Source: Candidatus Uhrbacteria bacterium (GTDB lineage Bacteria; Patescibacteriota; Patescibacteriia; UBA9934). From it: a stretch of 64,000 nt of DNA. The stretch is taken from the NCBI GenBank assembly GCA_943354605.1, contig CALRCK010000002.1:71186-135185 (forward strand), in the 5' to 3' direction. Shown piece after piece: positions 7,785 through 62,698 of the stretch. A program made the position numbers and the translations under genes. Numbering within the stretch: position 1 is the first letter of the stretch; each line of letters starts with the position of its first letter. The notes below the pieces were generated by a model. The model saw only the letters and a program-made list of their open reading frames with translations, made no database searches and had not been told where the DNA came from.

Positions 7785-7900
7785 AGTTTCACATTTGTGG
7801 CGAGTTTGGGTGCGCGACGAGGAAAGCTCGCGAGACGTACTTCATGTGTACGTTGAGCGAGTTTCCGATGGCGCAAGCCAAAAATCGGCCAAATAAGGAA
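7785..7900 (+). repeat. R1 palindromic dispersed element, copy a (~110 bp; core ...GCAAAGTTCGCGAGACGTACTTC..GTACGTTGAGCGAATTTGC...AAAATCGGCCAAA)
   Basis: Aligned by eye to at least 10 other copies in the window. Internal dyad symmetry around ACGTAC. Confidence 0.7.
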
Positions 7901-7909
7901 GTCCTGCCG

Positions 7910-9070
7910 TTAACGGACCGCAAACACTCCCTGACGAACCATCGCGTGGCGGCGATAAAGCGCAGCAGTTTCCTGCGCAATATCGTCCCAGTGATATTCG
8001 TCTTCCACAAACGTTCGCGCGGCATGACCGATTGCCGCAGCCTGCATCGGATCCTTTGCGAGATCGATAATGCAATCCGCAAGTGTTTCGACATCGCCTT
8101 GAGGAAACGGCACGCCGTAGTCGCTAATCACTTCCATGGTTTCAGGAATGTCGGCAGCAATAACGGCCTTTCCGTGACTCATTTCTTCAAGCACCGCGAT
8201 GGGCAATCCTTCACTGGTGGAAGGATGCACCATAAATCGCGCACCAGAGAACAACGCCGTGAGCGTGTCGCCACGCTGGAAACCGGTGAAGACAATGGAA
8301 TCATCGTACGACGCCATTGCGTGGAGTTTCCGAACATACGCGTCGGTAAATGCACTGCCACCAACAATCGCGAGCTTCATGCCTTTCATCACGTCAGGCT
8401 GTTGCTTGCACGCCAACTGCCATGCAGCGATCAGCGTGTGTGCTCCCTTGTGCGGAACCAAGCGCGCGATCATCGCCACATAATGGAACGGCTCCAAACC
8501 AAATGGCGACAAGAGCAATGGCTCAACAGATGTGCGTACCGGCGTAATGCCGTTTGGAATATACGTTGCACGTCGACCGTATTCCTGTTCTCCGTACTTG
8601 GTGAGTGTTTTGCTCACCGTGATGGTTTCGTCTGCAAACGCGAATGCGGCACGTTCGCCAAGACGAAGCGCAAGACGCGAAAACATTCCCCATTTTTCGT
8701 GGGTACGATCGATAGAGTGGAACGTGGTAACCACCGTTGCTCGTGGAGCAAGCATTCGAGGAATCCACGCCAAAAGCGATGGGCCGACGCCATGAAAATG
8801 ATAGACATCTGGACGGACGAAAATCGCCGCATGAAGTACCGCAAACAACGACGCCGTAATGGTATCGAGGTGTTTGGTGCGGATGCTTGGCGTGCGAACC
8901 ACGCGAATCCCGTTCACGCGATCGGCCCCCTTCGGGACGTACCACGTACGGCCATACACCGTGACCGTATGGCCAAGGCGCATGAGGCGGGTTGCAAGCT
9001 CAACAACGTGGGTTTCCACGCCGCCAAACTGTGCCGGAATCCCTTTCTGTCCAATCATGGCAATTTTCAT
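7910..9070 (-). CDS. GT4-family glycosyltransferase
   Basis: ORF 7910-9109 begins with a TTG codon. A likelier ATG start is at 9070 (MKIAMIGQKGIPAQFGGVETHV...). C-terminal EGLPIAVLEEMSHGKAVI matches the GT4 E-x7-E region. Confidence 0.8.
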   Translation of the reverse strand: MKIAMIGQKGIPAQFGGVETHVVELATRLMRLGHTVTVYGRTWYVPKGADRVNGIRVVRTPSIRTKHLDTITASLFAVLHAAIFVRPDVYHFHGVGPSLLAWIPRMLAPRATVVTTFHSIDRTHEKWGMFSRLALRLGERAAFAFADETITVSKTLTKYGEQEYGRRATYIPNGITPVRTSVEPLLLSPFGLEPFHYVAMIARLVPHKGAHTLIAAWQLACKQQPDVMKGMKLAIVGGSAFTDAYVRKLHAMASYDDSIVFTGFQRGDTLTALFSGARFMVHPSTSEGLPIAVLEEMSHGKAVIAADIPETMEVISDYGVPFPQGDVETLADCIIDLAKDPMQAAAIGHAARTFVEDEYHWDDIAQETAALYRRHAMVRQGVFAVR

Positions 9071-9199: not shown

Positions 9200-10429
9200 T
9201 TATCCACACCGTGAGTATATCTCCATGATTTTCGCAAGATGCTCCTGTGGATTACCAATAGCCCTCGCCCGTTCATATGCCGCATGCCCCATTATCATCG
9301 CCCGATCAGGGTCGTCGAGCACCCGCTCTATCGCTCTCGCCAAGGCTCGAGGATCACTTGGCGGCACCACAATCCCCGCATTGGATTCCCCCACAATCTC
9401 CGGCAATCCCCCGCTTTTCGCCACGATAACCGGCGTGGCCTGACACATCGCTTCGAGCGCAACAAGACCGTATGGCTCATTCCAAATGGACGGGACCACA
9501 ACAACCGCCGCCTGAGCCATCATCTTCCAGAGTTCAGCACCCGGAACAAAGCCCAAAAATTCCACCCGATGATCCTTTCCAATGATCGATTTCAGCCGTT
9601 GTTCATCCGGACCAACCCCAACAATCTTGATGCGCGTCGTCGATGGCAGATACCGCAATGCTTCAAGAAGAACGTGAACACCTTTGTACGACTCAAGTCG
9701 TCCAGCAAAAAGCACAAACGGTTCCTTTGCTTTTGCCGGAGTCGAGACGTTCGGATGCATGAGCGGCTCTGCAAACGCATGAAGAACGGAAATCTTTTTT
9801 TCATCAGTGCCCGACTGCACCATCACATCTCTCACAAAATTCGAGTACGTTGTGTAGTGCAGAATTGCAGAATCGTACCATTTCAGCGCATGATGCATTT
9901 TTAAAATGATCTCAAGCGCGAGCGTCGCAAGAAATGATCCCTTGATGAACTGTGTTCTTGCGGTTGCAAGAACACCAATATCATCCACGTCCATCGATCG
10001 CATGTTCGACTCATCCCATAGTGAATAGTTCGCACTCATCAATGCGTAGTCGTGCACCGTCATGACCACAGGAATCTTTCTGCGCTTCGCAACCGCAAGC
10101 ACCGACGGTGAAAGATGGGTATAGATGTTGTGGACGTGAATGATGTCTGGGCGAAACACCTCAAGCATGCGATCGAATTTCTTTTCCGCTTCCCTGGACC
10201 ACAATGCTCTTGCGGCTTGCCGAAATGCACTCAATCCAATCACCGCGCGCTTCGTTTCAAGATTCGAAACGAAATATTCGCTCCACGGTGTTGGTTCGTT
10301 TCTCTCGTCGTGCATCGCAAATGGCGCAACTGCATTCCCCGCCTCTTCTTGCAAACGCATCAACCCTCGCTCATACCGACTTGCACCGTCGCGAGAATGA
10401 AAATATTTATGGACATGGACGATACGCAT
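9200..10429 (-). CDS. GT4-family glycosyltransferase
   Basis: ORF runs to 10462. Likely start is M12, ATG at 10429 (MRIVHVHKYFH...). Motifs PSIWNEPYGLVALEAMCQATPVIVAKSGGLPEIV are GT4-like. Confidence 0.8.
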   Translation of the reverse strand: MRIVHVHKYFHSRDGASRYERGLMRLQEEAGNAVAPFAMHDERNEPTPWSEYFVSNLETKRAVIGLSAFRQAARALWSREAEKKFDRMLEVFRPDIIHVHNIYTHLSPSVLAVAKRRKIPVVMTVHDYALMSANYSLWDESNMRSMDVDDIGVLATARTQFIKGSFLATLALEIILKMHHALKWYDSAILHYTTYSNFVRDVMVQSGTDEKKISVLHAFAEPLMHPNVSTPAKAKEPFVLFAGRLESYKGVHVLLEALRYLPSTTRIKIVGVGPDEQRLKSIIGKDHRVEFLGFVPGAELWKMMAQAAVVVVPSIWNEPYGLVALEAMCQATPVIVAKSGGLPEIVGESNAGIVVPPSDPRALARAIERVLDDPDRAMIMGHAAYERARAIGNPQEHLAKIMEIYSRCG

Positions 10430-12088: not shown

Positions 12089-12241
12089 GAGATGATTATA
12101 ACAAACGTGGAGACGGCTCGCCGGGCCGTCTCGGGCCATAAACGCGAAGAGTCCCCCGATCCAGCCTTGCGGCCGAGTCGAGGGACTCCGTGTGGTCGGC
12201 GTTGCGTACGCCTACCCGTGCGAACGAACCCTCAGATCACG

Positions 12242-14275
12242 CTAGCAGCCGTGCCCCGGGTACACCGTGGCATCGCTGTCGTTGCAGTCGGCGCTGTCTT
12301 CCATGTACCCGTAGGACGTGTAAGTGGCCTTCTGCGTGCACGACAGAGGGTCGGTGCAGGCGTCGGGGTTGCCGTACCCATCGCCGTCGCCATCGGCGCA
12401 GAACAGGACGAGATCCTCGTCCACACTGCCGTCGCAGTCGTTGTCCACGCTGTCGCAGACTTCGGAGGCTCCGGGGTACACCCCATCGTCCCCGTCGTCG
12501 CAGTCGGTGGAGTCAGACACGTACCCGGCCGGAGCCGAGCACGCCGCGTCGGTCGTGGAGGAGTCGCCGTAGCTATCCCCGTCGCTGTCCGCGTAGAAGA
12601 CGCTGGTGACGCCTTCGTCCGTGCTGCCATCGCAGTCGTCGTCCGCACCGTTGCACACTTCGGGTTCGCCAGGGTTCAGGCTGGCGTCGCCGTCGTCGCA
12701 GTCGGCACACACGTCGTAGCCGTCTCCGTCGTAGTCGCCGTCGTCCGCGCTCCCCGAACAGTCGTTGTCCACCCCGTCGCACCATTCGATGTCGCCGGGG
12801 TAGGAATCGTTGTTCGTGTCGTCGCAGTCGGTGTTGTCGGCGGTGTAGCCGGAGGGCTCACTGCAGGACGTGGTGCTGATGGCCACGTTGCCGTAGCCAT
12901 CGTTATCCGCGTCCACGTACCACGTGAGGGCGTCCACAGCGCCGTCGTCCACCACGCCATCGCAGTCGTCGTCCACGCTGTTGCACGTCTCGAGTTCCCC
13001 GGGGTTGATTCCGGAGTCGGCGTCGTTGCAGTCGGTGAGGTCGAAGACGTAGCCGGAGGGCGCGGTGCCGTCGCACGTAGCGGTGGAGATGGAGGGATCG
13101 CCGAAGCTGTCGCCGTCGGCATCGGCGTAGGAACTGGTCCACGAGAGACCGTCGTCCGCGCTGCCGCTGCAGTCGTTGTCCACCCCGTCGCACGCCTCCA
13201 CTTCCGCGGGGTTGATTCCCGCATCGGTGTCGTCGCAGTCTGAGACGTTCGTGCTGTAGCCGGCGCCCGGATCCGCGCACTCGGAGGTTCCTACACCCGC
13301 ACCGTACCCGTCGCCATCGGCATCGGGGTAGTAGATGATGGTGGCGAAATCCTCGTCCGTGGAGCCGTCACAGTCGTCGTCCGCACCGTTGCAGACTTCG
13401 GCCGCACCCGGGTTGATGCCCAAGTCGCCGTCGTCGCAGTCGGTGGAGTCGGCGACGTAGTCCGAAGGCTCGTCGCACGCGGAGGTGGAGATGGAGGGAT
13501 CGCCGTACCCGTCGCCGTCGCTGTCCGCGTACCAGGTGAGGGCGTCGGTCGCGCCTTCATCGACGGTGCCTTCGCAATCGTTGTCCACCCCGTCGCACAC
13601 TTCCGTGTTGCCGGGGTAGGCGGTCGCGTCGGTGTCGTCGCAGTCCTCGCACGCGATGGTTCCGTCGCCGTCCAGGTCGGACGTACCGGCGGATCCGTCG
13701 CAGTTGAGGTCGATGGTGTCCGTGCAGCTCTCCACGGCGTACGGGTGAACGGTGGCGTCGGTGTCGTCGCAGTCGGTGTCGTTCTCGACGTACCCGACCG
13801 GAGCCGAGCAGCCGTCGATCGTCGCCGAGGCGTCGCCGTACCCGTCGCCGTCCGCGTCCGCGTAGAACGTCTTCTGGTCGGCGGCATCGCTGTCGATGTT
13901 GCCGTCGCAGTCGTCGTCTACGCCGTTGCAGACCTCCACCGAACCCGGGTTGATCGCCGGGTCGGCGTCGTCGCAGTCGTCGTCGGCCGTGAAGCCGTCG
14001 CCGTCCGCGTCGATGGGCTTGGCGGTGTCGCCGGTCTCACCGGTCTCGACCGAGTCCGAATCGCCGGTTTCCGAGTTGGTGTCCGGGACGGAGTCGGAAT
14101 CGGTCACGGTGCTGTCGCCGGTGCCGGTGTCGGAATCGCCGCAGTTGAGGTCAATGGTGACGGTGCCACCAAAGAGACCACCGGACGACTTCGTGCAATC
14201 GCCGGACGGCACCGCACAGGCATTGAGGACGAGGGTGACGAGAAAGGAGGGAACGAGAACGAGGGAACGGGTCAT
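12242..14275 (-). CDS. High-GC secreted/lipoprotein with ~11 tandem cysteine-rich repeats (DCDDxDxxxxPGAxExCNGxDDDCDGxxDE; MXAN 'putative metal-binding motif'-like)
   Basis: ATG at 14275 preceded by GGAGATTATC. N-term MTRSLVLVPSFLVTLVLNAC. GC ~68% with G/C-rich third codon positions; the repeats are visible directly in the translation. Confidence 0.75.
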   Translation of the reverse strand: MTRSLVLVPSFLVTLVLNACAVPSGDCTKSSGGLFGGTVTIDLNCGDSDTGTGDSTVTDSDSVPDTNSETGDSDSVETGETGDTAKPIDADGDGFTADDDCDDADPAINPGSVEVCNGVDDDCDGNIDSDAADQKTFYADADGDGYGDASATIDGCSAPVGYVENDTDCDDTDATVHPYAVESCTDTIDLNCDGSAGTSDLDGDGTIACEDCDDTDATAYPGNTEVCDGVDNDCEGTVDEGATDALTWYADSDGDGYGDPSISTSACDEPSDYVADSTDCDDGDLGINPGAAEVCNGADDDCDGSTDEDFATIIYYPDADGDGYGAGVGTSECADPGAGYSTNVSDCDDTDAGINPAEVEACDGVDNDCSGSADDGLSWTSSYADADGDSFGDPSISTATCDGTAPSGYVFDLTDCNDADSGINPGELETCNSVDDDCDGVVDDGAVDALTWYVDADNDGYGNVAISTTSCSEPSGYTADNTDCDDTNNDSYPGDIEWCDGVDNDCSGSADDGDYDGDGYDVCADCDDGDASLNPGEPEVCNGADDDCDGSTDEGVTSVFYADSDGDSYGDSSTTDAACSAPAGYVSDSTDCDDGDDGVYPGASEVCDSVDNDCDGSVDEDLVLFCADGDGDGYGNPDACTDPLSCTQKATYTSYGYMEDSADCNDSDATVYPGHGC

Positions 14276-14554
14276 GATAATCTCCAGGATCAGTGAGGGA
14301 AAGTGTCGTATCTGAGGGTTCTGTTTTGAAAGATTCGTGCCCGAATGAGGGCGTCGTGACATCGTGTCACTCCCCCATGCGAGGGACAAGGAAGAATAGT
14401 CTAAAAGTGTCGAAAAGTAAAGCAAAAAAGTGGAGAAAATTCAAACGACCTCGGACACTCGACCAACCCGCGTGGGGAAGGAAGAGGCCGAGGCCGTTCG
14501 TTGCGTGAGTCACCGAACCGTCACGCGGCGGGGTTGCTGCCGACTTCCGCACGC

Positions 14555-15301
14555 CTAGGGCGTGTACAGGTACTCGTAGCTGCCGTACGTGGCGTACGCC
14601 GTGGCGCTGAGGTCGTACCCGTTGACCGAGTACTGGACCACCGCGCAGGTGACGTTGCCGTCGTAGAACACCGCGTTGCCGGTGAGGCCGCCGCAGGCGT
14701 ACACGGAGAAGTCGCCGTAGCCGTCGGTCGTGGTGCTGAGGCCCGAGAGCTTCAGCACGTGACCGGTGGAGCCGGGGTACTCCGCGCACTCGCCCACGAG
14801 GTCGCTGGTGTAGAGCGGGGTCGGGACGGTGCCGTCGGACGCGAACCAGTAGGTGCTGTCCCCGCTGGTCATGTCGAGCACGGCCACGGAGTAGGCGGCG
14901 GCGGAGGTGACCGTACAGATCCGGGTGACGTCGTGGACGTCGTTGTCCGAGTCGTTGAGGTCGCCGCCGATCGCCACGTAGCCGGAGGGCTGGGTGCAGG
15001 ACCACGTCGAGCTGGCGGTGAGGCCGAACCCGTCGTTGTCCGCGTCCAGGTACCACACGATCTCCGTGCACGCGCTGGTGTCCTCCGCCGTGTCGGCGGA
15101 GTCCGCGGTGTCGTCGGCACCCGAATCCGCGGTGTCCGTGGAGTCCGTGTCCGTGTCGGTCGAACCGGTGGAGCCGGAGCTGCCGATGCCGCCGAAGCTG
15201 TAGCCGCCGGAGGCGGGGGCCTCGGAGCCGGTGTCGGGCGCCGGGCTGGACACGCCGCAGGCGGCGAGGGTGAAGAGGAACGGAACGAGGGTGGAACGCA
15301 T
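14555..15301 (-). CDS. High-GC lipoprotein, hypothetical (one WYxDADxDGFG...C..PSGYV repeat related to the 12242-14275 gene)
   Basis: ATG 15301 preceded by GGAGAGACTCTC. Lipobox FTLAAC. GC ~68%. Confidence 0.7.
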   Translation of the reverse strand: MRSTLVPFLFTLAACGVSSPAPDTGSEAPASGGYSFGGIGSSGSTGSTDTDTDSTDTADSGADDTADSADTAEDTSACTEIVWYLDADNDGFGLTASSTWSCTQPSGYVAIGGDLNDSDNDVHDVTRICTVTSAAAYSVAVLDMTSGDSTYWFASDGTVPTPLYTSDLVGECAEYPGSTGHVLKLSGLSTTTDGYGDFSVYACGGLTGNAVFYDGNVTCAVVQYSVNGYDLSATAYATYGSYEYLYTP

Positions 15302-15482
15302 GAGAGTCTCTCCGAGGGTGACACGGCCCGTGCTTTTGCTAAGCGCGGGTTGTGGCAGAAGTGAAACTTTCGCTTCACTGCTCGCACAATTCTGTGTCCA
15401 TTCCTATAAAATCTTGACCGAGTATTGTAGCAAAAATTTGGAACTTTGTCAATGATCAAAGCTCGGTTCGAGCCGACGAGAA

Positions 15483-15598
15483 CGGTTTTATTTGCGACGA
15501 GTTTGGACGCGCTTCGAGCAAAGTTCGCGAGGCGTACTTCTCGGTACGTTGAGCGAATTTGCGAAGAAGCAAGTTCAAAATCGGCCAAATAAAACTGT
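15483..15598 (+). repeat. R1 palindromic element, copy b
   Basis: ...GAGTTTGGACGCGCTTCGAGCAAAGTTCGCGAGGCGTACTTCTCGGTACGTTGAGCGAATTTGCGAAGAAGCAAGTTCAAAATCGGCCAAAT... Confidence 0.7.
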
Positions 15599-15719
15599 TC
15601 TCAAAAGCGAACACCCCGGGCGACCGCTTCACTCCCCCGTAGTTGGGAAGGAAGGGTCGCACCGGGGTGCGCGTGGTTGCCGCGTTCACCCACACGGCAG
15701 GTCGGGCTGGGGAGCCCTA

Positions 15720-16352
15720 CTAGTACGTGTGGCAAGCCGTGTCGGGCGGGGCGAAGCTTCCGCCGAGCGGGCTCACCACACCGTTCTCGACCATGAACGA
15801 CCAGTTGACGTCCGTGCGGTAGCCGCTCGAGTCGTAGCCGGTCATGCCCGCGCAATCGGGGCTGCCGTTCACGATCGTGGCGAGGTAGCGCGAGTCGTCG
15901 TTGGTCGTGAGGCCCTCGAGCGCCTGGCAGAAGCCGTTCTGCGTGTACGGAGTCGCGGACGTGAGCCCGCAGGTGATCTCGTACATGCCGTCGCGGATGC
16001 CGGTGGCGCCGTAGCCGACGACCTCGCCCGTCGAGTTGGTCAGCTCGGGGAGCGGGAGGAAGGCGGTCTCCCAGCCGAACTCCGCGTCGTTGTACTCCTC
16101 CGAGCCGAAGCCGAAGGTGGAGTAGCTCTGGCCCGAGGCGTTCACCGGCATGGTGGCGCTGAAGAACCAGGCGACGCTGGCGCCCACGTCCGTCTGCCCG
16201 AAGGCGTAGGACTGGTTGCCGTAGTCCGAGATGCCGTTGCCGTCGAGGTCGTCGATGGCCACGATCTCCTGGACTTCGCCGCCCGAGACGTCGGGGCCGG
16301 AGGAGTAGGTGGAGCAGGCGGGGAGGATGGTGAAGAGCGCGATGAGGATCAT
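15720..16352 (-). CDS. High-GC lipoprotein, hypothetical
   Basis: ORF runs to 16466. Probable start is ATG 16352 (MILIALFTILPACSTYSSG), preceded by GGAGACACAGTC. Lipobox LPAC. Confidence 0.65.
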   Translation of the reverse strand: MILIALFTILPACSTYSSGPDVSGGEVQEIVAIDDLDGNGISDYGNQSYAFGQTDVGASVAWFFSATMPVNASGQSYSTFGFGSEEYNDAEFGWETAFLPLPELTNSTGEVVGYGATGIRDGMYEITCGLTSATPYTQNGFCQALEGLTTNDDSRYLATIVNGSPDCAGMTGYDSSGYRTDVNWSFMVENGVVSPLGGSFAPPDTACHTY

Positions 16353-16502
16353 GACTGTGTCTCCGAACGGGTGGAAGAAGGCCGGGGGTTCCCGGCGACT
16401 CGGGTTGCGAGCCACCTGGATGTCCAGGCCTTGGCAGAAGTGAAGGATTTCCTTCACTGCTTGCAAGGACTGGCTTACAGGACTTCCTCATTTTGACTAT
16501 TT

Positions 16503-16612
16503 TCGGCTTGCTCGTCGCACATTCGCTCAACGTACCGAGAAGTACGCCTCGCGAACTGTGATCCTCGCGCACCGAAACTAGCCTAAAATGAGAAAGTTCT
16601 GTGTAAAACTCA
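16503..16612 (-). repeat. R1 palindromic element, copy c (inverse orientation)
   Basis: TATTTTCGGCTTGCTCGTCGCACATTCGCTCAACGTACCGAGAAGTACGCCTCGCGAACTGTG...CGAAACTAGCC. Confidence 0.7.
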
Positions 16613-16837
16613 TGTTCAATTGTGAACCAAGTACTATAGCAAGAATTTGAAGTTTTGTCAATGATTGAGGTTCATCAATCATTCATTTTGCTGCAAATGC
16701 TCTTGTATTGAGAAGCGTCGCGAACGGCCGGGGGAATCGAGGCTTGTGGCCCCTATCCCCCAGCCGAACCGTTGCGTGGTCACCGTGTCCTTGCCCGTCA
16801 GCCCCACTTCGACATGGGGCCTACTAGGGCGAAGGAA

Positions 16838-17818
16838 TCAGCGCACCGTCACCGAGCTGCCGCTGCCGACCGGACCGGCGAAGAAGCGGATGCCGCCGTG
16901 GCCGTAGCCCACCCCGCCGATGCCGGCGGTCGAGCTGTCGACCATGTCGTACCCGCCGCCCACGAAGAGCTCGATGTTCACCGGCCCGAAGGCCTGGAAA
17001 TCGATCCCCACCTGCGCCTGCCCGCCCGTACGGGTGGCGGAGCACAGGGGGTCGCCCGTAAAGGCGCCCTCGCAAACGAACGACGGACCGATGCCGACGA
17101 CGAGGTCCGCCCCCTCACCGAGGTTCTGCACCAGCTCCGGGAGGGCCCGGATCGAGGTGGCATCGGCGCTGAAGCCGTACCCACCGTCGATCTCGAGGGC
17201 CACCCACGTGTTCGCGTGGACGTCCCAGGAGAAGCGGCCGAAGAGCTCGGTGCGGTCCGACACCCAGGCATCGCTGCCCGGGAGCGGCGGGGCCACCGTC
17301 CCCATCTCGGACAAGCCGATCTGGAAGCGGGTGCCCGACACGCGGACCGTCTCGGTGTGCTCGGTGTGCTCGACGACCGTCGGGTTGACCGTCACGTCCG
17401 ACGCCGCCACGTTCACGACCGGGGCCGGGACGTTGACGACGATCGGCCGGGTCTGCTCCGCACGCAGCGCCTCGGTCAGCTCCGTGATCTCCGCCTTGAG
17501 CGACTCGATCTCCGCGGTGTGCGGGTCGGGCTGCGGGGCGGAGGCGGCGGGGGCCGGGGCGGCGGGCGGGGCGGCGGGGGCCTTGGGCGCGGCGGGCTTC
17601 GGGGTGCTGGGCTTCGCGGTCGCCTTCGGCTTGGCCGGGGCCGCGGGCTTGCACGACGACTTCGCGGCGCACTTGGCGCGCAGCTCGGCGAGCTGGGCCT
17701 CGAGGGCCTGGCGCTCGATGGCGTCGCGCACGACCTCGGTCTCGAGAAGCGAGGGGTCGAGGGTGGCGCCGTCGTCGGCGTAGGCGGAGAGGGTGAAGGA
17801 CAGGAGCAGGGTGAGCAT
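16838..17818 (-). CDS. High-GC secreted protein, hypothetical (signal peptide, coiled-coil, Pro/Ala/Lys-rich linker, Gly-rich C-terminal domain)
   Basis: 326 aa. N-term MLTLLLSFTLSAYA. GC ~70%. Confidence 0.65.
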   Translation of the reverse strand: MLTLLLSFTLSAYADDGATLDPSLLETEVVRDAIERQALEAQLAELRAKCAAKSSCKPAAPAKPKATAKPSTPKPAAPKAPAAPPAAPAPAASAPQPDPHTAEIESLKAEITELTEALRAEQTRPIVVNVPAPVVNVAASDVTVNPTVVEHTEHTETVRVSGTRFQIGLSEMGTVAPPLPGSDAWVSDRTELFGRFSWDVHANTWVALEIDGGYGFSADATSIRALPELVQNLGEGADLVVGIGPSFVCEGAFTGDPLCSATRTGGQAQVGIDFQAFGPVNIELFVGGGYDMVDSSTAGIGGVGYGHGGIRFFAGPVGSGSSVTVR

Positions 17819-18424
17819 CGGATTGATTCTCCTCGGCCGGATGGCCGATGGTTCGGGTCAAGAATTGCGCGGGCCGGATGGCCTACTTGAGCATTTCGCG
17901 CTCCAGAAGTTCGGCGTCGACCGGGTGTTGGAGGGAACACCCAGAACACCAAACTCCTGGAGAACGAAATGCCCTGTTTTCTTTGACCTTTCTCCGATGG
18001 AATCCTTTATTCAAGGACAGACCATCATACCAAGAAACGCCCAAAAAGTCAAATATTGGCGAATGTTAGAGAAGAAAATTGACCAAAATAAAAACCCTTT
18101 CCGGAGACCCTATGATCACAGATTGCAACGAGGAGGAGGCGTCACAAACGTTTCGTAGGGTCCCCGCAAAAGGCTTTCGTGAGCAAAGGGAACCAAAAGC
18201 AGGCGCAAGCGTCAAGAATCTATCAACAATGAACCGGGATAAGTGAACCTGGCCTGAAGTGACCTTAGATGGCATTGAGGGGGCGGGTCTGAATCCTTGA
18301 AAAGAGAATGGACGGGACGAGGCTGGGAGTACGAGGTACTGCGACAAGAAATGACACCCTTGAATTTTGGGGTTTTAAAACTGGGTCACAAAATGTGATC
18401 TGAATCGAAAGTCGATGAAAAGTG

Positions 18425-23347: not shown

Positions 23348-23746
23348 GGGCCTGACGGGCTTCGATGCTCTTCGGATCCTCACAAATCACGCCGGAAGGG
23401 CACCATATTCCGAAATCCCGTGGTGCAACGAGATACTTGCAAACGCATTCTCAAAGGTGAAGGCAGCTATCGCTTCGGCGTTCAGCGTTCCTTCATTCTC
23501 ATTGGTTACCGCCTAAGGGCCGCAACCCATCCACTTCGCAATGCCTCATAGCGGATGTTGGGTGCAATATTATGAGACTATAGGCGTTCTCTTGTTCGCT
23601 CAGAGAACGTAACCCGTTGCAGCGAAATCGTTATGATGATTCTTGTTCCGTCTTATCGTCATGCCGTATCCGACGGAACTGCGCGTGGAATAAATTTGTT
23701 TGGTGATGTGGGGTAGACGGGAGTTCAACTCTCCCCAGGTCCACCA
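23348..23746 (+). ncRNA. ssrA: tmRNA (ssrA)
   Basis: Lies directly downstream of smpB. The 5' GGGCCUG pairs with the 3' CAGGUCC-A-CCA to give a 7-bp acceptor stem with G3·U70 (alanine identity). T-arm GGGAGTTCAACTCTCCC. 5' region GGGCCTGACGGGCTTCGATG resembles the tmRNA consensus. The tag reading frame was not resolved. Confidence 0.75.
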
Positions 23747-24776: not shown

Positions 24777-24782
24777 AAAACT

Positions 24783-24892
24783 TCGCTCTTTGGCCGATTT
24801 TCGACTCAGATCATCGGAAACTTCCTCAACGTACATATGAGGTACGCCTCGGAAGCTTTCCTCGATCTTCGTCGAAACTCGTCTCAAATATC
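24783..24892 (-). repeat. R1 palindromic element, copy e, in the rpmI-rplT spacer
   Basis: TTTGGCCGATTTTCGACTCAGATCATCGGAAACTTCCTCAACGTACATATGAGGTACGCCTCGGAAGC... Confidence 0.6.
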
Positions 24893-24915
24893 AAAGTTTT
24901 TATCAATTCTCTCCT

Positions 24916-25260
24916 ATGCCACGCGTCAAACGAGGTACCCAACACACAAAACGCCGAAAGAACCTGCTTGCTCGCGTAAAAGGCTATAAGTGGGGCCGCA
25001 AGAGCAAGATCCGTCTTGCCCGCCCGGCAATGCTCAAGGCTGGTGTATACGCATTCCGCGACCGCCGTGCCAAGAAGCGCACCTTCCGCGCCCTTTGGAC
25101 GGTAAAGATCAACGCAGCAGTGCACGAACTCGGCCTGAGCTACTCCCGGCTCATCAACATGCTCAAGGTGTCCAATATCGCCATCGACCGCAAGATTCTT
25201 GCCCAGGTTGCAGAAAAGCACCCAGAAGTGTTCGCAAAGATTGTTGCAGCAGCAAAATAA
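24916..25260 (+). CDS. rplT: 50S ribosomal protein L20
   Basis: MPRVKRGTQHTKRRKNLLARVKGYKWGRKSKIRLARPAMLKAGVYAFRDRRAKKR... Confidence 0.9.
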   Translation: MPRVKRGTQHTKRRKNLLARVKGYKWGRKSKIRLARPAMLKAGVYAFRDRRAKKRTFRALWTVKINAAVHELGLSYSRLINMLKVSNIAIDRKILAQVAEKHPEVFAKIVAAAK

Positions 25261-25264
25261 GCCC

Positions 25265-25300
25265 AAAAATCACCCCCGAACCGTCGGAGGTGATTTTTTG
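25265..25300 (+). terminator. Rho-independent terminator after rplT (AAAAATCACCCCCGAACCGTCGGAGGTGATTTTTT)
   Basis: GC-rich inverted repeat followed by a T-run. Confidence 0.65.
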
Positions 25301-25474
25301 TTCATTGAATATTGACTTTTCCGCGTATTTCTGATATCCTTTCACGTCATGCGAAATTGTGTGAGTCCGGGTTTTTGAACGGCGAAGTTCCCTTCGCCCT
25401 TCCAAGCCCCGGATTCCCGGGCACCGCCGCAAACCAGCCACTCGGCTGACCGGCACCCCTCCCTGGAGACTCGC

Positions 25475-25993
25475 ATGAAGCGCCTCGTTCTGTCCCTCGC
25501 CCTCATCGCCGCCGGCTGCGCCAACACGCAGTCCGGCTCCACCTCCACCACCAGCCCCCTCGCCGCGACCTGCGACGTGCCGGCGGACACCACGCTCAGC
25601 ACGTTCAACGCGGACGGCACCTTCCCGGTGACCGGTCGCGGCGTCTCGGCCGACGGCTCCATGGCGGTCAACCTGTGCGACGGCCCCGTGTTCCGGGTGC
25701 TGTTCGTGGAGGGCATGATCGCGGGCGACGCCGCCCAGCACCAGGGCGGCCTCTTCACCGACGGCCAGAACCACCTGGTGCACCACGACGACCTGATCAC
25801 CACCTCCACGACCCCGGTCGCGGCGGACGGTGGTCTCGACGGCGTGAAGGTGACCTGCTTCAAGGGGGTCAACTGCAAGGACGCCCCCGACGAGCCGGCC
25901 CCGGCCGCCGAGGACGCCGTCAGCAACACGCCCGCCGCCCAGGCCGCCGAGCCGCAGGCCGCCACCACGGTCGCGCCCCCGCCGCACCCGTAG
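25475..25993 (+). CDS. High-GC lipoprotein, hypothetical
   Basis: ATG preceded by CTGGAGACTCGC. Lipobox LIAAGC. GC ~70%, unlike its flanks. Confidence 0.65.
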   Translation: MKRLVLSLALIAAGCANTQSGSTSTTSPLAATCDVPADTTLSTFNADGTFPVTGRGVSADGSMAVNLCDGPVFRVLFVEGMIAGDAAQHQGGLFTDGQNHLVHHDDLITTSTTPVAADGGLDGVKVTCFKGVNCKDAPDEPAPAAEDAVSNTPAAQAAEPQAATTVAPPPHP

Positions 25994-26134
25994 CAGGGAC
26001 ACGACGCCACCGGTAGTTTTCCAACGCGGCAGCTACCACGCGATGCCCGACTCCCCCACCATAGGGAGCCGGGCATCTGCAATTTTAGAAATACTTTTCA
26101 AAAGAAAAAGTCCTCACCGAAGTGAGAACCTTTT

Positions 26135-26155
26135 CTGGCGGGACGGACGGGACTC
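26135..26155 (-). repeat. 21-nt direct duplicate of the tRNA-Asp 3' end (TGGCGGGACGGACGGGACTCG), 166 bp from the intact tRNA
   Basis: Identical to 26322-26342 and in the same orientation as the tRNA. Candidate att-site remnant. Confidence 0.6.
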
Positions 26156-26289
26156 GGCCTCGCCTCGAGGGTCGTCGACACTCCCCTCGGGCTGGCCACC
26201 GCCTCGCGATTCCGACTGGTGTCGGAATAACGCTCCGGCGTTCTCGTCCCGACGCGAGCAAAATTGTTTGCTCGCTTCCGCCCGCACAC

Positions 26290-26320
26290 GAAAACACGAC
26301 CCGATGTGGGTCGTGTTTTC
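26290..26320 (-). terminator. Hairpin AAAACACGACCC gatgt GGGTCGTGTTTT immediately 3' of tRNA-Asp
   Basis: 12-bp perfect stem with flanking A/T runs. Confidence 0.6.
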
Positions 26321-26321
26321 G

Positions 26322-26398
26322 TGGCGGGACGGACGGGACTCGAACCCGCAACCTCTGCCGTGACAGGGCAGCGCTCTAACCAGTTGAGCTACCGACCC
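26322..26398 (-). tRNA. tRNA-Asp (GTC), CCA encoded
   Basis: Reverse complement is GGGTCGGTAGCTCAACTGGTTAGAGCGCTGCCCTGTCACGGCAGAGGTTGCGGGTTCGAGTCCCGTCCGTCCCGCCA. Anticodon loop CTGTCAC. T-arm identical to E. coli tRNA-Asp. Acceptor pair 4-69 is U·U. Confidence 0.8.
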
Positions 26399-26412
26399 AG
26401 GGTGAACGTCCC

Positions 26413-26512
26413 TATTTGGGGTATTTTCGGCTTGCTGCGTCAAAAATTTGCTCACCGTACCAAGAAAGTACGCCTCGCAAATTTTCTCCTAGCGCACCGA
26501 AACTACCCGCAA
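26413..26512 (-). repeat. R1 palindromic element, copy f, adjacent to the tRNA-Asp 5' side
   Basis: TATTTTCGGCTTGCTGCGTCAAAAATTTGCTCACCGTACCAAGAAAGTACGCCTCGCAAATTTTCTCCTAGCGCACCGAAACTACC. Confidence 0.6.
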
Positions 26513-26601
26513 ATATGAACGTTCACAGAAATTCCTGAGCGCGAGTATAGTACCACGCAGAATTTTTTTGACAAGGACGGGGACTGTGCGAAAATGCAGA
26601 T

Positions 26602-27591
26602 ATGGAACCGTCGAAACATCCTGCAATATTCATTATTGTGCTCATCGCGCTGGGCATTGGAATTGGCGTCACCATTTCTTGGCTCCTTTTCCGGCCAAAC
26701 GCCATTGACACCGGGCATACGTTACGCTTAACCGACCCCAACTACCCGCTCATCAAACCGCTCCTGGCGTGCAACATCGATAGCACAACACCAACAAAAA
26801 CGCTCGACCCATTACAATCATCGCTTCAAGACGCGGTGGATCGCGCGACTGCCGCAGGAGACATCACTCGTGCAGGAATCTATATACGAAAACTCTCCGA
26901 TGGCACCTGGACCGCAGTACACGGCGACGACGAATACAGTCCCGCAAGTCTCATGAAAATCGTGACACTCTTCGTGTATCTTCACGATGCGGACAATGAT
27001 CCTTCCGTCCTTGATCGCGTTCTTGTTGTCGATCCAACCATCAACACGGGGACGCAAAATATCATCCCAACATCAACAGCCATTCCAGGAAAACGCTACA
27101 CCGTCAATGAGCTCCTCCGATACATGATTGTGAATTCAGACAACGTCGCAACGCTTACGTTGGTACACAATACGCAAAACGATGAACTGAATACACTGTT
27201 AAATGATTTGGAAATTCCCGGATATTTAGACGAAGAAAATTTCACCATATCCCCAAGACACTACTCTCGATTTCTCCGCATTCTGTACAACAGCACTTTG
27301 CTGAGCGAAAAATCCTCAGAATTTGCCTTGGAATTGCTCGCGGCGAGCGACTACCGTGATGCGCTCGTCCAAGGAATTGCCCCACAAGAAACCACTGCTC
27401 ACAAATTTGGCGAACGTGGCATCACAAATGCTGACGGTTCAAAATCGTATCAACTCCACGACTGCGGAATTGTCTATGCACTAGAGCCGTATATGCTATG
27501 CATCATGACCGAAGGGAACGACCTACCCACGCTCGCGAACACCATTGCCTCGTTCACGACGATCGTTGATACATTCATCAATACCTACTGA
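26602..27591 (+). CDS. Class A beta-lactamase-family serine hydrolase (paralog 1)
   Basis: PASLMKIVTL (S-x-x-K), NSDNVAT (SDN) and HKFGE (KTG-like). N-terminal TM anchor. Confidence 0.65.
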   Translation: MEPSKHPAIFIIVLIALGIGIGVTISWLLFRPNAIDTGHTLRLTDPNYPLIKPLLACNIDSTTPTKTLDPLQSSLQDAVDRATAAGDITRAGIYIRKLSDGTWTAVHGDDEYSPASLMKIVTLFVYLHDADNDPSVLDRVLVVDPTINTGTQNIIPTSTAIPGKRYTVNELLRYMIVNSDNVATLTLVHNTQNDELNTLLNDLEIPGYLDEENFTISPRHYSRFLRILYNSTLLSEKSSEFALELLAASDYRDALVQGIAPQETTAHKFGERGITNADGSKSYQLHDCGIVYALEPYMLCIMTEGNDLPTLANTIASFTTIVDTFINTY

Positions 27592-33640: not shown

Positions 33641-33924
33641 AGTGAACAACCAAATGGTTCAAGGATAGGGAGCCCTGAACACTGAATGTGATCACCGTAT
33701 AGTATAGCGTGTTCAAGGGTCAACGAATACTGGGGATGAAATGGGGACAGGATAGGGCTAAACTAAGTTTGAGACTAACTAAGTTAGTAGCAAACTTAGT
33801 TAGTGGCAGACTTTCAAAAGCATCCGCCCCGCAAACTCTTTCGAGCCGCGGGGCGGGCGTTGGCCGGTCGCTGCGTACGACCGGCCTGGCGTGGGTTGTG
33901 GAACCTACCGAACGGAGACCGAGA

Positions 33925-34686
33925 TCAGGCGGTGGTAGCGAGCCAGATGGCGAAGTCCAGGAACGCCTGGTTGTCGCCGCACTGCGAGCGGTAGATCGCA
34001 GCCTGCCCCGCGAAGACCGGGGCGACGACCTGACGGGCGCCCTGGACGTCCATAATGCGGCGCCAGCCGCCCTGTTCGCCAGCGATGCGAAATGCCTCCT
34101 CCACGAAGCGGTGAATCTTCACGGCCGCGACGTCGTCCACGCTGCCGGCGGCGAAGACCACCGCCTTCTCCACGAGCCATATCATGATCTCCGTTGCGTG
34201 GCGACGCTCGGCGATGGACTGAGCCTCGCCGTCCTTGCGCTCGGCGAACATCGCCTCGATTTCGGGGATGAGGCTATCCTCCCCCACGATTCGGAGGTAG
34301 ACACGCCAGGGCCGGATCTGCTGCTCGGCCCAGGCGCGGTAGTCCGCCTCCTCCTTGCGCTTCGTGCCGGCAGCGATCTGGTCCGCGAGCTCGGCGGCGG
34401 CACGCTCACGGGCAGCGCTGCGATCGGCACGGTTCGGAGCACCCTTACGCCACCAGCCGAAGACGGAGAAGGCGAGGGAGCCGCCGCCGATGAACGCGAC
34501 AGCAGCGATGAGGAGGCTCACGATGCGCGGGCCCGCCTCGGGCGTCCACAGCTTGAGCACGTGGGTGTCCACGAGACGCGCGTAGTCCGGGTCGGACACG
34601 GCCGCGAGGCTGCCGATGAGCACGAGGCTCGGGATGAAGAACGCGGGGTGGATGACGATGCGGTAGAGAAACCGGAGCAGGAACAT
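33925..34686 (-). CDS. High-GC membrane protein, hypothetical (two N-terminal TM helices)
   Basis: 253 aa, GC ~66%, inserted between ftsA and ftsZ. ATG 34686. Confidence 0.6.
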   Translation of the reverse strand: MFLLRFLYRIVIHPAFFIPSLVLIGSLAAVSDPDYARLVDTHVLKLWTPEAGPRIVSLLIAAVAFIGGGSLAFSVFGWWRKGAPNRADRSAARERAAAELADQIAAGTKRKEEADYRAWAEQQIRPWRVYLRIVGEDSLIPEIEAMFAERKDGEAQSIAERRHATEIMIWLVEKAVVFAAGSVDDVAAVKIHRFVEEAFRIAGEQGGWRRIMDVQGARQVVAPVFAGQAAIYRSQCGDNQAFLDFAIWLATTA

Positions 34687-34875
34687 GGCGGAAGCCTTCT
34701 TGTTGGGGGAACGAGGGAGGTTGAATGCCGGATTCGGCTTGGATATTCAATCAAAAAAATGAGAATTTGGCAAGCAAAAGCCAAGAAATAGCACTTGAAA
34801 AGGTTTTAGGGTGTAGGTTTTAGTCCAATCCATCTGCCACGAATCACTAACACCTATAACCTAAAATCTCCAAAC

Positions 34876-38047: not shown

Positions 38048-38767
38048 TTAGCTCCCCTGAGGAACGGTAAACAATTTTCCAGGACCATTCGGATTATATC
38101 CGCCGGAAACCTCTTGTCCGTCTAAATATCCGTCGCCATCCGTATCTGTCTTTCGCGGATCGGTTCCGTACACTTCAACTTCCTCCCGATCCCCAAGCCC
38201 ATCGCCATCGGTATCTGCCTTCGTCACAGATGTGCCAACCTCGAGTTCACGCGCATTTGTTAAACCATCGCCGTCGCTATCAAGAAGCGACGCAGGATTG
38301 GTCGTTTGAACTGGCGCCTGTGTTGTTGGTTCTTCTGGAGCGGTTGTTGCGGCTGGGGCTGTTGTGTTTGACGGTGTTTTTGTTGTGGTCGACGAATCCG
38401 TTGCAACACCAGTGTCTGGAACCGCGTCAACAACACTCCCGTCCGCCGCTGGCTGAACCATGATGCGATATGCGAAAAAACCAGACACACCAAAGATGAC
38501 CAAAATACCTACAACAATAAGAACCATCTTCATACCTCCCCCGCCGCCTCGAGATTCTGGCATCGGCTCCATAGTCGGTGCCGCGCCATACGATGGCGGC
38601 AACCGCGTTGGTGGCGGTGCGATTGGTGGCGGAGCCTGAATCGGCTGTGGTTCTGCTGGCGACGCCATCGGAGCGGGCGCTGGAGCAGCAGCCGGAGCCT
38701 TATCTGTTCCCTCGAATATGTCTTTTGGTTCTTCGTCAAACATACGTGGCTGATTTATTTTGCCCAT
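38048..38767 (-). CDS. Membrane-anchored protein with TSP3-like Ca-binding repeats (paralog 2)
   Basis: From ATG 38767 (MGKINQPRMF...). DSDGDGLTNARELE...DTDGDGLGDREEVE...DTDGDGYLDGQEV. Confidence 0.6.
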   Translation of the reverse strand: MGKINQPRMFDEEPKDIFEGTDKAPAAAPAPAPMASPAEPQPIQAPPPIAPPPTRLPPSYGAAPTMEPMPESRGGGGGMKMVLIVVGILVIFGVSGFFAYRIMVQPAADGSVVDAVPDTGVATDSSTTTKTPSNTTAPAATTAPEEPTTQAPVQTTNPASLLDSDGDGLTNARELEVGTSVTKADTDGDGLGDREEVEVYGTDPRKTDTDGDGYLDGQEVSGGYNPNGPGKLFTVPQGS

Positions 38768-38769
38768 TT

Positions 38770-38872
38770 TCACCTCACTCGTCGAAAACTTCCTCACCGT
38801 ACCAATGAAGTACGCCTCGGAAGATTTTCTCCTCCTTCGGCGAAACTGGTCTAAAATAGATCAGCCACGTTT
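38770..38872 (-). repeat. R1 palindromic element, copy g
   Basis: ...CTTCCTCACCGTACCAATGAAGTACGCCTCGGAAGATTTTCTCC... Confidence 0.55.
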
Positions 38873-54004: not shown

Positions 54005-54158
54005 ACACAAAAAGTATAGCAAGCTCGTAATAAAACGCGAAGAGACCCTCGACCGGCATGCCGATCGAGGGTCTCCGTTGGCCGGCGCTGCGTACGCCTG
54101 CCCGTGCTGTCTACCGACCGAACACCGAACCTTGACTCGAACCGCTGACCGATCCCCG

Positions 54159-55607: not shown

Positions 55608-55824
55608 TGTCTGGAACTCCGTTCCTTTTTGAGGTCAACTGGCACGGCGCTCCCAAGGGGCAACACCGTTCGGTTATCCATCGGAAAGAGCGGGGTGCGC
55701 TTCCTCTGGGCCTAATGCTGCAAAAATGGCTAGCATTCGCGCAGGATTCGGGCCAGAGGAAGGAGGGGTGAGATTATCCGATTTTCTGCAAAACGTCAAG
55801 GCTTTTTGCTTGTGGCGAACAAAA

Positions 55825-62571: not shown

Positions 62572-62585
62572 CAAGAACTTCACCA

Positions 62586-62698
62586 ATTTGCCTATTTTCG
62601 GCTTACTGCGTCGCACATTCGCTCAACGTACCGAGAAGTACGCCTCGCGAACTGTGCTCCTGGCGCACCGAAACTAGTCTAAATTGGTGAAGTTCTTC
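62586..62698 (-). repeat. R1 palindromic element, copy k, filling the tRNA-Leu / tRNA-Val spacer
   Basis: TATTTTCGGCTTACTGCGTCGCACATTCGCTCAACGTACCGAGAAGTACGCCTCGCGAACTGTGCTCCTGGCGCACCGAAACTAGTC. Confidence 0.7.

Follow-up and report, generated by a model that had tools for sequence, protein, structure and literature searches.

The 3' ends of tRNA genes are classic landing sites of integrases, and the elements described at such sites span kilobases and bring their own enzyme. Tyrosine-integrase islands and prophages are bounded by direct repeats (attL and attR), and their crossover region extends from the T-loop to the 3' end of the tRNA; sublocation classes for integrase sites in tRNA genes were reportedly set out by Williams in Nucleic Acids Res in 2002. 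Cis-mobilizable elements (CIMEs), which derive from integrative conjugative elements, and derivatives resembling miniature inverted-repeat transposable elements (MITEs) are flanked by attachment (att) sites, carry no recombination genes, are presumed to use an enzyme supplied in trans, and grow by tandem accretion. In integron attC sites and in the attP hairpin of CTX-phi, on which XerCD acts, a folded single strand rebuilds the duplex recombination site. Transposed tRNA introns of Thermoproteales archaea were reportedly described by Fujishima et al. in Mol Biol Evol in 2010. The present analysis concerns a 186-bp gene-less segment behind the tRNA-Asp gene in a 64,000-nt stretch of a Candidatus Uhrbacteria genome (contig CALRCK010000002.1, positions 71,186 to 135,185 of the forward strand; the whole stretch is called the window, and its own positions are used below). 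Comparisons of sequence and predicted fold indicate that this segment belongs to a previously uncatalogued family of folded mini-elements located behind many tRNA genes. The family is labelled R1 here, after a covariance model of its three-way-junction module, and no description of such elements was found in the literature searched.

The segment is bounded by a direct repeat. The 21-mer TGGCGGGACGGACGGGACTCG occurs exactly twice in the window, in one orientation, at 26136-26156 and 26322-26342. A third copy was not found in the window with up to three mismatches allowed, and two copies were seen in none of 100 dinucleotide-preserving shuffles. The copy at 26322-26342 is the 3' end of the tRNA-Asp(GTC) gene, which lies on the minus strand at 26322-26398 and encodes its own CCA (ARAGORN; Rfam tRNA model RF00005, 67.6 bits). 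In terms of the tRNA, the 21-mer runs from C56 of the T-loop through the 3' strands of the T-stem and the acceptor stem to the discriminator G and the encoded CCA. In other words, it reads, in the tRNA sense, CGAGU (the final five T-loop bases), CCCGU (T-stem 3' strand), CCGUCCC (acceptor 3' strand), G, and CCA. The initial annotation had reported this duplication and had placed the tRNA copy correctly; the other copy, given there as 26135-26155, was off by one. The spacer between the copies, described there as 166 bp with two hairpins, is present (26157-26321), but it measures 165 bp and contains four hairpins. A Logan contig (L001, run ERR5863123) from an independent assembly is 100% identical to the window over 24805-26361, a range that takes in rplT and a lipoprotein gene as well as both copies of the repeat and part of the tRNA. 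Because an independent contig matches in this way, the arrangement is not an assembly artefact.

How did the second copy arise? In the tRNA sense, each repeat copy is followed by a hairpin and a U-tract. The hairpin after the distal copy (26099-26135, minus strand; GAAAAGGUUCUCACUUCGGUGAGGACUUUUUCUUUUG), composed of GAAAAGGUUCUCAC, UUCG, GUGAGGAC, and UUUUUCUUUUG, matches the terminator that stands directly behind an uninterrupted tRNA-Asp in the related loci L019 and L020. The same distal terminator is found in the syntenic loci L232/L237, with 86% identity over 57 nt, the 21-mer included. Locus L009 has kept a terminator of the distal type together with just a 10-nt relic of the tRNA end. 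Because the sequence past the distal copy matches the terminator after an uninterrupted tRNA-Asp, the 186 bp are an insertion. The comparison indicates that the distal copy (26136-26156) and its terminator are the displaced native end of the tRNA gene, and that the proximal copy and the 165 bp arrived with the insert. The two 21-nt copies mark both junctions of a gene-less insertion of 186 bp (26157-26342 or, equivalently, 26136-26321), and the copy that now serves as the working tRNA 3' end (26322-26342) would be insert-borne. The empty-site junction implied by this insertion is GTCCGTCCCGCCA joined to GAAAAGGTTCTCAC, and the tandem or circular junction implied by the unit is GAGGCCGAGTCCCGTCCGTCCCGCCA followed by CGAAAACACG. 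The closest relatives (L007-L014) were rejected as empty-site controls because synteny is broken. On the plus strand, 26099-26135 is also predicted to be placed so as to terminate the lipoprotein gene.

The same tRNA end is occupied by an integrase island in a relative. This locus (L237), found through the serine-hydrolase gene (26602-27591) that lies right of the tRNA in the window, shares synteny with the window on that side of tRNA-Asp, across the genes for the hydrolase, a cupredoxin, pyruvate kinase, NrdR, FtsZ, and FtsA. In L237, tRNA-Asp and its terminator are followed by an 8.2-kb island that encodes a convergent tyrosine integrase (PF00589), an excisionase-like HTH_17 protein, DUF5659, and HATPase_c_3; the integrase and HTH_17 genes adjoin the tRNA. 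The sequence GGTTCGAGTCCCGTCCGTCCCGCCA is found exactly at both island ends, forming a 25-nt direct repeat (1525-1549 and 9720-9744). Because L237 holds an integrase island flanked by 25-nt copies at this position, the comparison indicates that the tRNA-Asp 3' end is a genuine integrase attachment site. The attL/attR-like geometry that the initial annotation had proposed for the duplication thus fits. The window insert shares with tRNA-integrated islands a direct repeat of the tRNA 3' segment, a regenerated tRNA, and an integrase element at the same site in a relative. It does not share the gene for the enzyme. As had been annotated, no integrase is present: no integrase, recombinase, transposase, or reverse transcriptase was found among 30 window open reading frames (ORFs) scanned against Pfam, the 165-bp segment holds no such ORF, and no homologue of the L237 integrase was detected by tblastn in the window or in other tRNA-Asp loci. 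Likewise, the 165-bp spacer shows no similarity to the L237 island at either end. Positions 1-9700 of L237, which comprise the island and a flank, also carry defence-like genes (SIR2_2, a DUF87 (HerA-like) ATPase, and HATPase_c_3).

Related units occur at other tRNA genes. A search with ribosomal protein L20 placed the window in Candidatus Uhrbacteria (Patescibacteria) and returned 80 related loci. One of these, L015 (Uhrbacteria, 82% L20 identity), has a 73%-identical counterpart directly behind tRNA-Asp, in which the hairpins occupy the same positions and differ in sequence. A retrieval motif common to the window and L015, GAGAACNNCGGAGCG-N25-35-GGTGGCCAG, yielded 25 metagenome loci, one of them a chance hit in a coding region; about 22 of the loci have a tRNA 60-70 nt upstream of the motif, encoded on the strand of the motif. 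The placement in Uhrbacteria covers the window and L015 only; the metagenome contigs span 37-59% G+C (GC). The metagenome tRNAs are Arg-CCG, Arg-TCG, Leu-TAA, Leu-TAG, Leu-GAG, Ser-GGA, Ser-TGA, Lys-CTT, Glu-CTC, and Asn-GTT, so that R1 stands behind 11 tRNA anticodon types when Asp-GTC of the window is included. The units are 145-190 nt long, and most of them begin with a terminator-like hairpin, which is strong in some (L220, L219). A copy of the unit's own tRNA 3' end (at least 12 nt with at most one mismatch) closes 17 of 22 units; in the units that were read, this copy spans from the CGA of the T-loop to the discriminator or the CCA.

Within the window unit, all parts are read on the minus strand. 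A terminator-like hairpin (CGAAAACACGACCC ACAUC GGGUCGUGUUUUCG; 26289-26321) follows directly after the CCA of the tRNA and forms the first part of the insert. It is followed by a segment called var1 (GCGGGCGGA; 26277-26285), which in the minimum-free-energy fold is the complement of the acceptor 3' strand, the discriminator, and the first C of the CCA end of the repeat (UCCG-U-CCCGC, with one bulged U). Next comes hairpin 1 (GCGAGCAAA CAAU UUUGCUCGC; 26254-26275), whose stem covaries in the family (columns 24-26/60-62 and 37-41/46-50). A second segment, var2 (CGGGAC; 26246-26251), is the 5' strand of the closing helix P1 and pairs with GUCCCG of the distal repeat copy, which supplies the 3' strand; this pairing is supported by covariation. 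The single-stranded junction GAGAAC (26240-26245) is invariant in 15 of 15 aligned units. Hairpin 2 (26201-26239), with a conserved GGA/GA internal loop, is supported by covariation in helices 2-4, and hairpin 3 (26157-26199), in which the motifs GGUGGCCAG and GAGAGGCGAGGCCGA are conserved and the basal U-G pair is invariant, by covariation in helices 5-6. The predicted fold of the window unit has an energy of -91.3 kcal/mol (z = -6.46). The three-way-junction module at 26146-26254 (109 nt, 70% GC) is a full match to the R1 covariance model and its sole hit in the window; the score (120.5 bits, E 2.5e-21) is partly circular, as the window sequence is in the model seed. L015 scored 94.7 bits, the model revealed a second unit on L219, behind tRNA-Lys, and the independent members came from the short motif of 22 specified bases. 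A kissing loop between hairpin 1 (AACUGCUU) and hairpin 2 (CAGCAG) was considered and dropped because it did not co-vary in the Asp, L210, L217, L219, and L227 units.

The closing helix follows the neighboring tRNA. In each unit read, the nucleotides immediately before GAGAAC complement the local copy and change with the unit's own tRNA. For example, var2 pairs as CGGGAC/GUCCCG in the window, GGUGGGAU/AUCCCACC in L217, CGGGAG/CUCCCG in L211, and CAGGAC/GUCCUG in L216. An upstream segment that pairs with the acceptor 3' strand, as var1 does in the window, is often present; in L207 its counterpart GCGGGCCG pairs with CGGCCCGC, which is a compensated change. The window insert thus combines a match to the model, a same-strand position after a tRNA whose 3' end it copies, and complementarity of var2. 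Statistical support for the consensus three-way junction comes from the alignment of 15 units. Its paired cells amount to 94.5% compared with 79.3% in column shuffles, a value that none of 500 shuffles reached, and partners that were slid along the alignment left 33-44% of the cells paired. Changes on both sides were seen in 20 of 34 pairs, compared with 11.5 +/- 1.9 in the shuffled alignments (again 0 of 500). In helix P1, five of the six pairs change on both sides and 90% of the cells are paired. RNAalifold, applied to a longer alignment, found compensatory changes in 27 of 42 pairs.

Searches for a known RNA in the insert gave little. With Rfam 15 (gathering threshold or E <= 1), only the tRNA passed in the search of the spacer, accompanied by one sub-threshold hit that rested mainly on the tRNA; two more sub-threshold hits lay just beyond the distal copy. 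The units at eight other loci were unmatched in Rfam, and the whole window gave only transfer-messenger RNA (tmRNA) and tRNAs. Known ribozymes and RNAs (hammerhead, hepatitis delta virus-like, twister, hatchet, signal recognition particle RNA, 5S, RNase P, and Y RNA) were rejected as identities, because none produced an Rfam hit at E <= 1 and their junction motifs do not fit. A scan of IMG/VR with a 14-base motif gave chance hits only, a result that nhmmer bore out.

The units vary in number and in their tRNA partner. Contigs that otherwise match carry one or two identical units (L210/L231 versus L223; L216/L226 versus L224), and more arrays of units are found in L217 and L220. Behind Ser-TGA (L214) and Arg-CCG (L222), the module begins with 62 nt that are 100% identical, and every tRNA-matched segment differs between the two. 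The distribution of R1 is patchy. Among about 80 Patescibacteria rplT loci, of which about 20 have tRNA-Asp, only the window and L015 were matched by R1. In the comparison with related tRNA-Asp loci that the initial annotation had called for, L019 and L020 show the uninterrupted end and its native terminator. Decayed copies also occur; in L015 the distal copy lacks its acceptor part, and the units of L220, L221, and L214 have diverged.

Inserts unrelated to R1 have the same kind of junction, a duplicated tRNA 3' end. They are found in L061 (7272-7530), L063 (9485-9750), L066 (9000-9240, tRNA-Ser), L076 (8900-9300, tRNA-Arg-GCG), and L030, where the insert at 7795-8000 forms a clean filled/empty pair at tRNA-Asp with L021 (10682-10800). 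The L076 insert consists of two tandem 94-nt units that resemble partial tRNA-Arg copies with two hairpins in the T-loop. All five were rejected as R1 members, since the model did not detect them even with its filters off; the L063 insert has the hairpin-1 loop motif AACUGCUU in common with R1. A XerC/D-like tyrosine recombinase gene in L231 (3087-4052, minus strand) ends about 30 nt after the tRNA-Leu-TAA unit array, and is also present in L223, L210, and L213, with rpsO and pnp as neighbors. It was rejected as an enzyme dedicated to the tRNA-Leu units (L231/L223) because it occurs beside them in one lineage only and among housekeeping genes, and its proximity is probably coincidental.

What kind of element is the insert? 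It is considered somewhat probable that it is a miniature non-autonomous integrative cassette specialized on tRNA 3' ends. Among the options offered by the initial annotation, a miniature integrative element comes closest to this reading; a decayed or excised element is not supported, because conserved, covarying counterparts of the spacer recur behind many other tRNAs and the spacer has no similarity to the L237 island. Read in the tRNA sense, each unit consists of the regenerated tRNA 3' end, usually a terminator-like hairpin that leaves the tRNA gene intact, often var1 as the complement of the acceptor 3' strand, a small hairpin, var2, which is complementary to the 3' strand of the T-stem, a conserved module with two hairpins (about 95 nt), and the displaced native tRNA 3' end. 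One strand folds into the three-way junction, in which inverted var2 (often with var1) and the direct copy of the tRNA end form the closing helix. The units would move, or would have moved, by site-specific recombination at the core that extends from the T-loop to the CCA of the tRNA, with an enzyme supplied in trans, for example a tRNA-specific tyrosine integrase like that of L237. The folded strand, as DNA or RNA, may be what the machinery recognizes. The internal inverted copy could have two roles. It could restore a double-stranded att core out of one folded strand, in the manner of integron attC or the attP of CTX-phi, and it could also simply sequester the extra tRNA 3' copy. The extra copy can compete with the 3' strand of the tRNA itself, which is why sequestration would matter; in the minimum-energy fold of the whole precursor, the two are swapped. 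The terminator-like hairpin present in most units fits an element that preserves the tRNA gene of its host, and its position ahead of the module mildly favors a role at the DNA level.

A number of observations weigh against the cassette reading. No enzyme was linked to any R1 unit, either in the window or consistently near the units on other contigs, and the specific 22-base motif had zero matches among the viral sequences of IMG/VR. No empty/filled pair was found for an R1 unit in a closely related strain, and the syntenic 'empty' site of L237 holds the island. Classical recombination of a 186-bp double-stranded circle would be physically awkward, and the matching of the inverted segments to each new tRNA is unexplained by the cassette model. 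The two units of L219 are only ~70% alike, and some copies look like old residents and not fresh copies. Furthermore, the invariant junction bases and the invariant U-G pair suggest a functional RNA that possibly serves the host. The U-G pair favors the tRNA-sense strand, though it does not tell RNA and DNA apart, and the fold could equally be that of an RNA.

These points lead to the alternative that R1 is a host-serving non-coding RNA made from the tRNA trailer, with the three-way-junction core as its active part, that spread by local duplication and gene conversion and not by transposition. The tRNA-like closing helix and the NCCA tail would then be a processing or stabilizing signal for RNase P, RNase Z, or the CCA-adding enzyme. 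This alternative is considered rather unlikely. Strong covariation, the invariant single-stranded GAGAAC, the conserved GGA/GA loop, and the invariant U-G pair of the sense strand are what a functional RNA would show, the orientation relative to the tRNA is constant, and the closing helix is built like the stacked acceptor stem and T-stem of the neighboring tRNA. Two diverged yet intact units persist on one contig (L219), and at least five units (L211, L212, L214, L217, and L229) have no evident terminator-like hairpin between tRNA and module and would therefore be co-transcribed with the tRNA. However, most units do open with such a hairpin, which would limit transcription of the module. A host-serving RNA also sits poorly with the patchy occurrence among relatives, with decayed copies that show the unit to be dispensable, and with copy numbers that differ between near-identical contigs. 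It gives no reason for so exact a copy of the neighbor's 3' end. In addition, the site is a proven integrase att site, unrelated inserts have this type of junction, and no Rfam family matches.

Two further explanations are less likely still. A classical integration scar, in which a kilobase integrase island once lay between the repeats and an internal deletion left 165 bp of its ends, is improbable. The attL/attR geometry of the repeat and the island with a 25-nt repeat at this exact site in a relative are in its favor, and the 10-nt relic of the tRNA end by the terminator in L009 shows that rearrangements occur at the locus. But the 165 bp are unlike either end of the L237 island, and the same length and architecture recur behind 11 tRNA types in more than 20 contigs and are under structural selection; independent decay would not converge on one 109-nt module. 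A degenerate tandem tRNA-Asp pseudogene, whose middle drifted or was replaced, is very improbable, even though the insert has an acceptor-like helix, a hairpin at the position of the D/anticodon arms, and a T-stem-like helix, and the L076 tRNA-Arg units resemble partial tRNA copies with T-loop hairpins. A tandem pseudogene, which the initial annotation had named among the results that would speak against its own proposal, should show a recognizable cloverleaf or homology along the body of the tRNA, yet neither ARAGORN nor the Rfam tRNA model finds a second one, and identity ends sharply after 21 nt. The partners of var1 include the discriminator and C74 and, in L218, bases of the T-stem, which makes var1 a complement of the 3' strand and not a copy of a tRNA 5' end. 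The constant parts are common to units behind unrelated tRNAs, which independent decay cannot give, and the tRNA-Asp loci compared, about 20 in number, showed no graded intermediates to intact tandem tRNA-Asp genes. A retro-element model, with an 18-nt copy templated on the tRNA up to m1A58, had been prompted by the start of the repeat at T-loop position 56-59; it was rejected because the units have no linked reverse transcriptase and because such a model would not give rise to their architecture.

How does R1 compare with the described systems? It behaves like an att-flanked integrative element and fails on two counts, the integrase gene and size. As in tRNA-integrated islands, the insert lies between direct copies of the tRNA 3' end and leaves a regenerated tRNA; in contrast to them, the insert is 186 bp long without a gene or integrase, has a covarying module and an internal inverted att core, and recurs at 11 tRNA types. 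CIMEs, integron attC or CTX-type sites, and archaeal tRNA introns resemble it in single respects only. R1 shares with CIMEs the att-repeat bounds, the lack of recombination genes, and tandem accretion, but CIMEs are kilobase-sized decay products at one site, whereas R1 units are 145-190 nt long, structurally conserved, and re-matched to many tRNAs. With attC and CTX-phi sites, R1 has in common small imperfect inverted repeats, compensatory change, and tandem arrays, and its predicted fold has the structural prerequisite of a folded att site, namely an inverted and a direct copy of the att core with covariation. The likeness is one of predicted fold, dependence on IntI or Xer being a property of the known systems. 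The target also differs, as R1 is found at tRNA 3' ends and not at attI or dif, and R1 has long invariant single-stranded motifs. Like R1, the Thermoproteales introns are homologous short elements associated with many tRNA genes in a lineage, T-arm positions included; they lie inside the tRNA and are removed at a bulge-helix-bulge by the splicing endonuclease, whereas R1 lies after an intact tRNA, beside a duplicated 3' end. A different comparison is with RNAs that mimic tRNA, such as the tRNA-like domain of tmRNA, the bacterial YrlA Y RNAs (PMC4201824), and plant mitochondrial t-elements. R1 likewise combines a stacked acceptor-like and T-stem-like helix ending in NCCA with a non-tRNA domain. 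Its helix differs in copying the neighboring tRNA and not a fixed identity; the discriminator and C74 are often paired, and there is no T-loop.

A more specific form of the cassette reading is put forward tentatively and is itself rather unlikely. R1 could be a self-contained 'folded att-site' cassette, that is, a gene-less strand of 145-190 nt in which a direct and an inverted copy of the last ~20 nt of the tRNA are arranged around a three-way-junction scaffold. The folded strand would present a duplex att core or, as RNA, a guide; a recombinase acting in trans would insert it after the tRNA, and the guide-like segments would be re-matched to each new tRNA. In that case, Patescibacteria would harbor a new class of mini mobile element that is programmable and depends on structure.

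The tRNA-Asp gene of the window has its own setting. A sigma-70-like promoter on the minus strand (26547-26574; TTGTCA, a 16-nt spacer, and TACTAT, with TG) would drive it, and the same promoter and leader precede tRNA-Asp in L002 and L232. The cassette of promoter, ~120-nt leader, and tRNA (26322-26575) is reversed relative to the lipoprotein gene in L002 (8520-8845). The acceptor stem of the window tRNA has a U4-U69 mismatch (5' GGGUCGG, 3' CCGUCCC), where relatives L012 and L019-L022 have A4-U69. A dispersed ~120-nt repeat with internal inverted repeats occurs at 26404-26524, 16482-16599, 62575-62676, 15480-15591 (minus strand), 38766-38833, and 24779-24898; one of the copies makes up the leader from promoter to tRNA-Asp, another separates tRNA-Leu from tRNA-Val, and a third lies between rpmI and rplT. 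This repeat is distinct from the R1 unit, and its copy in the tRNA-Asp leader is a separate segment (26404-26524). The possibility raised at the outset that the duplicate belongs to a dispersed repeat is not borne out, since the R1 spacer is single-copy in the window and the 21-mer lies outside the ~120-nt repeat.

The insert adjoins a GC-rich gene. The backbone of the window has ~50% GC, and blocks of 67-70% GC are found at 12093-17943, 25337-26377, 33799-34739, and 54014-55629. The blocks that were examined encode small secreted proteins or lipoproteins without a Pfam match, and one includes a gene (12242-14425, minus strand) whose 727-aa product has nine MopE-type metal-binding repeats. The lipoprotein ORF lies in such a block at 25475-25993, as annotated, but the link to the element that had been suggested for it does not stand. 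The gene is outside the repeats, and its homologues (50-63% identity) follow rplT directly in relatives, including some without a nearby tRNA-Asp. It was therefore rejected as cargo, and synteny indicates that it is an old resident unrelated to the insert. Its GC-rich composition looks intrinsic to the gene and not a mark of recent transfer, because relatives have the gene at the same position, with ~70% GC in L002, the sole homologue measured. No third, degenerate att copy turned up where the GC-rich block begins on its left side, either with up to three mismatches or by short-word BLAST. Elsewhere in the window, the tmRNA gene between smpB and infC (23348-23746, plus strand), which ARAGORN missed and Rfam scored at 89.9 bits, is inverted relative to its neighbors in some close relatives and not in others (L007, L008, L011, and L014 compared with L009, L010, and L012).

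R1 represents a gene-less unit of ~150-190 nt with a strongly covarying fold, apparently re-tailored to at least 11 tRNA species, in the reduced and hard-to-culture Candidate Phyla Radiation. If the units are mobile, they would be the smallest att-type cassette described and would offer a handle on how recombination sites are retargeted. If they act as RNA, they would form a new tRNA-linked RNA family that is absent from Rfam. Either way, repeats of a tRNA 3' end that lie a few hundred bases apart are not automatically the scars of decayed prophages.

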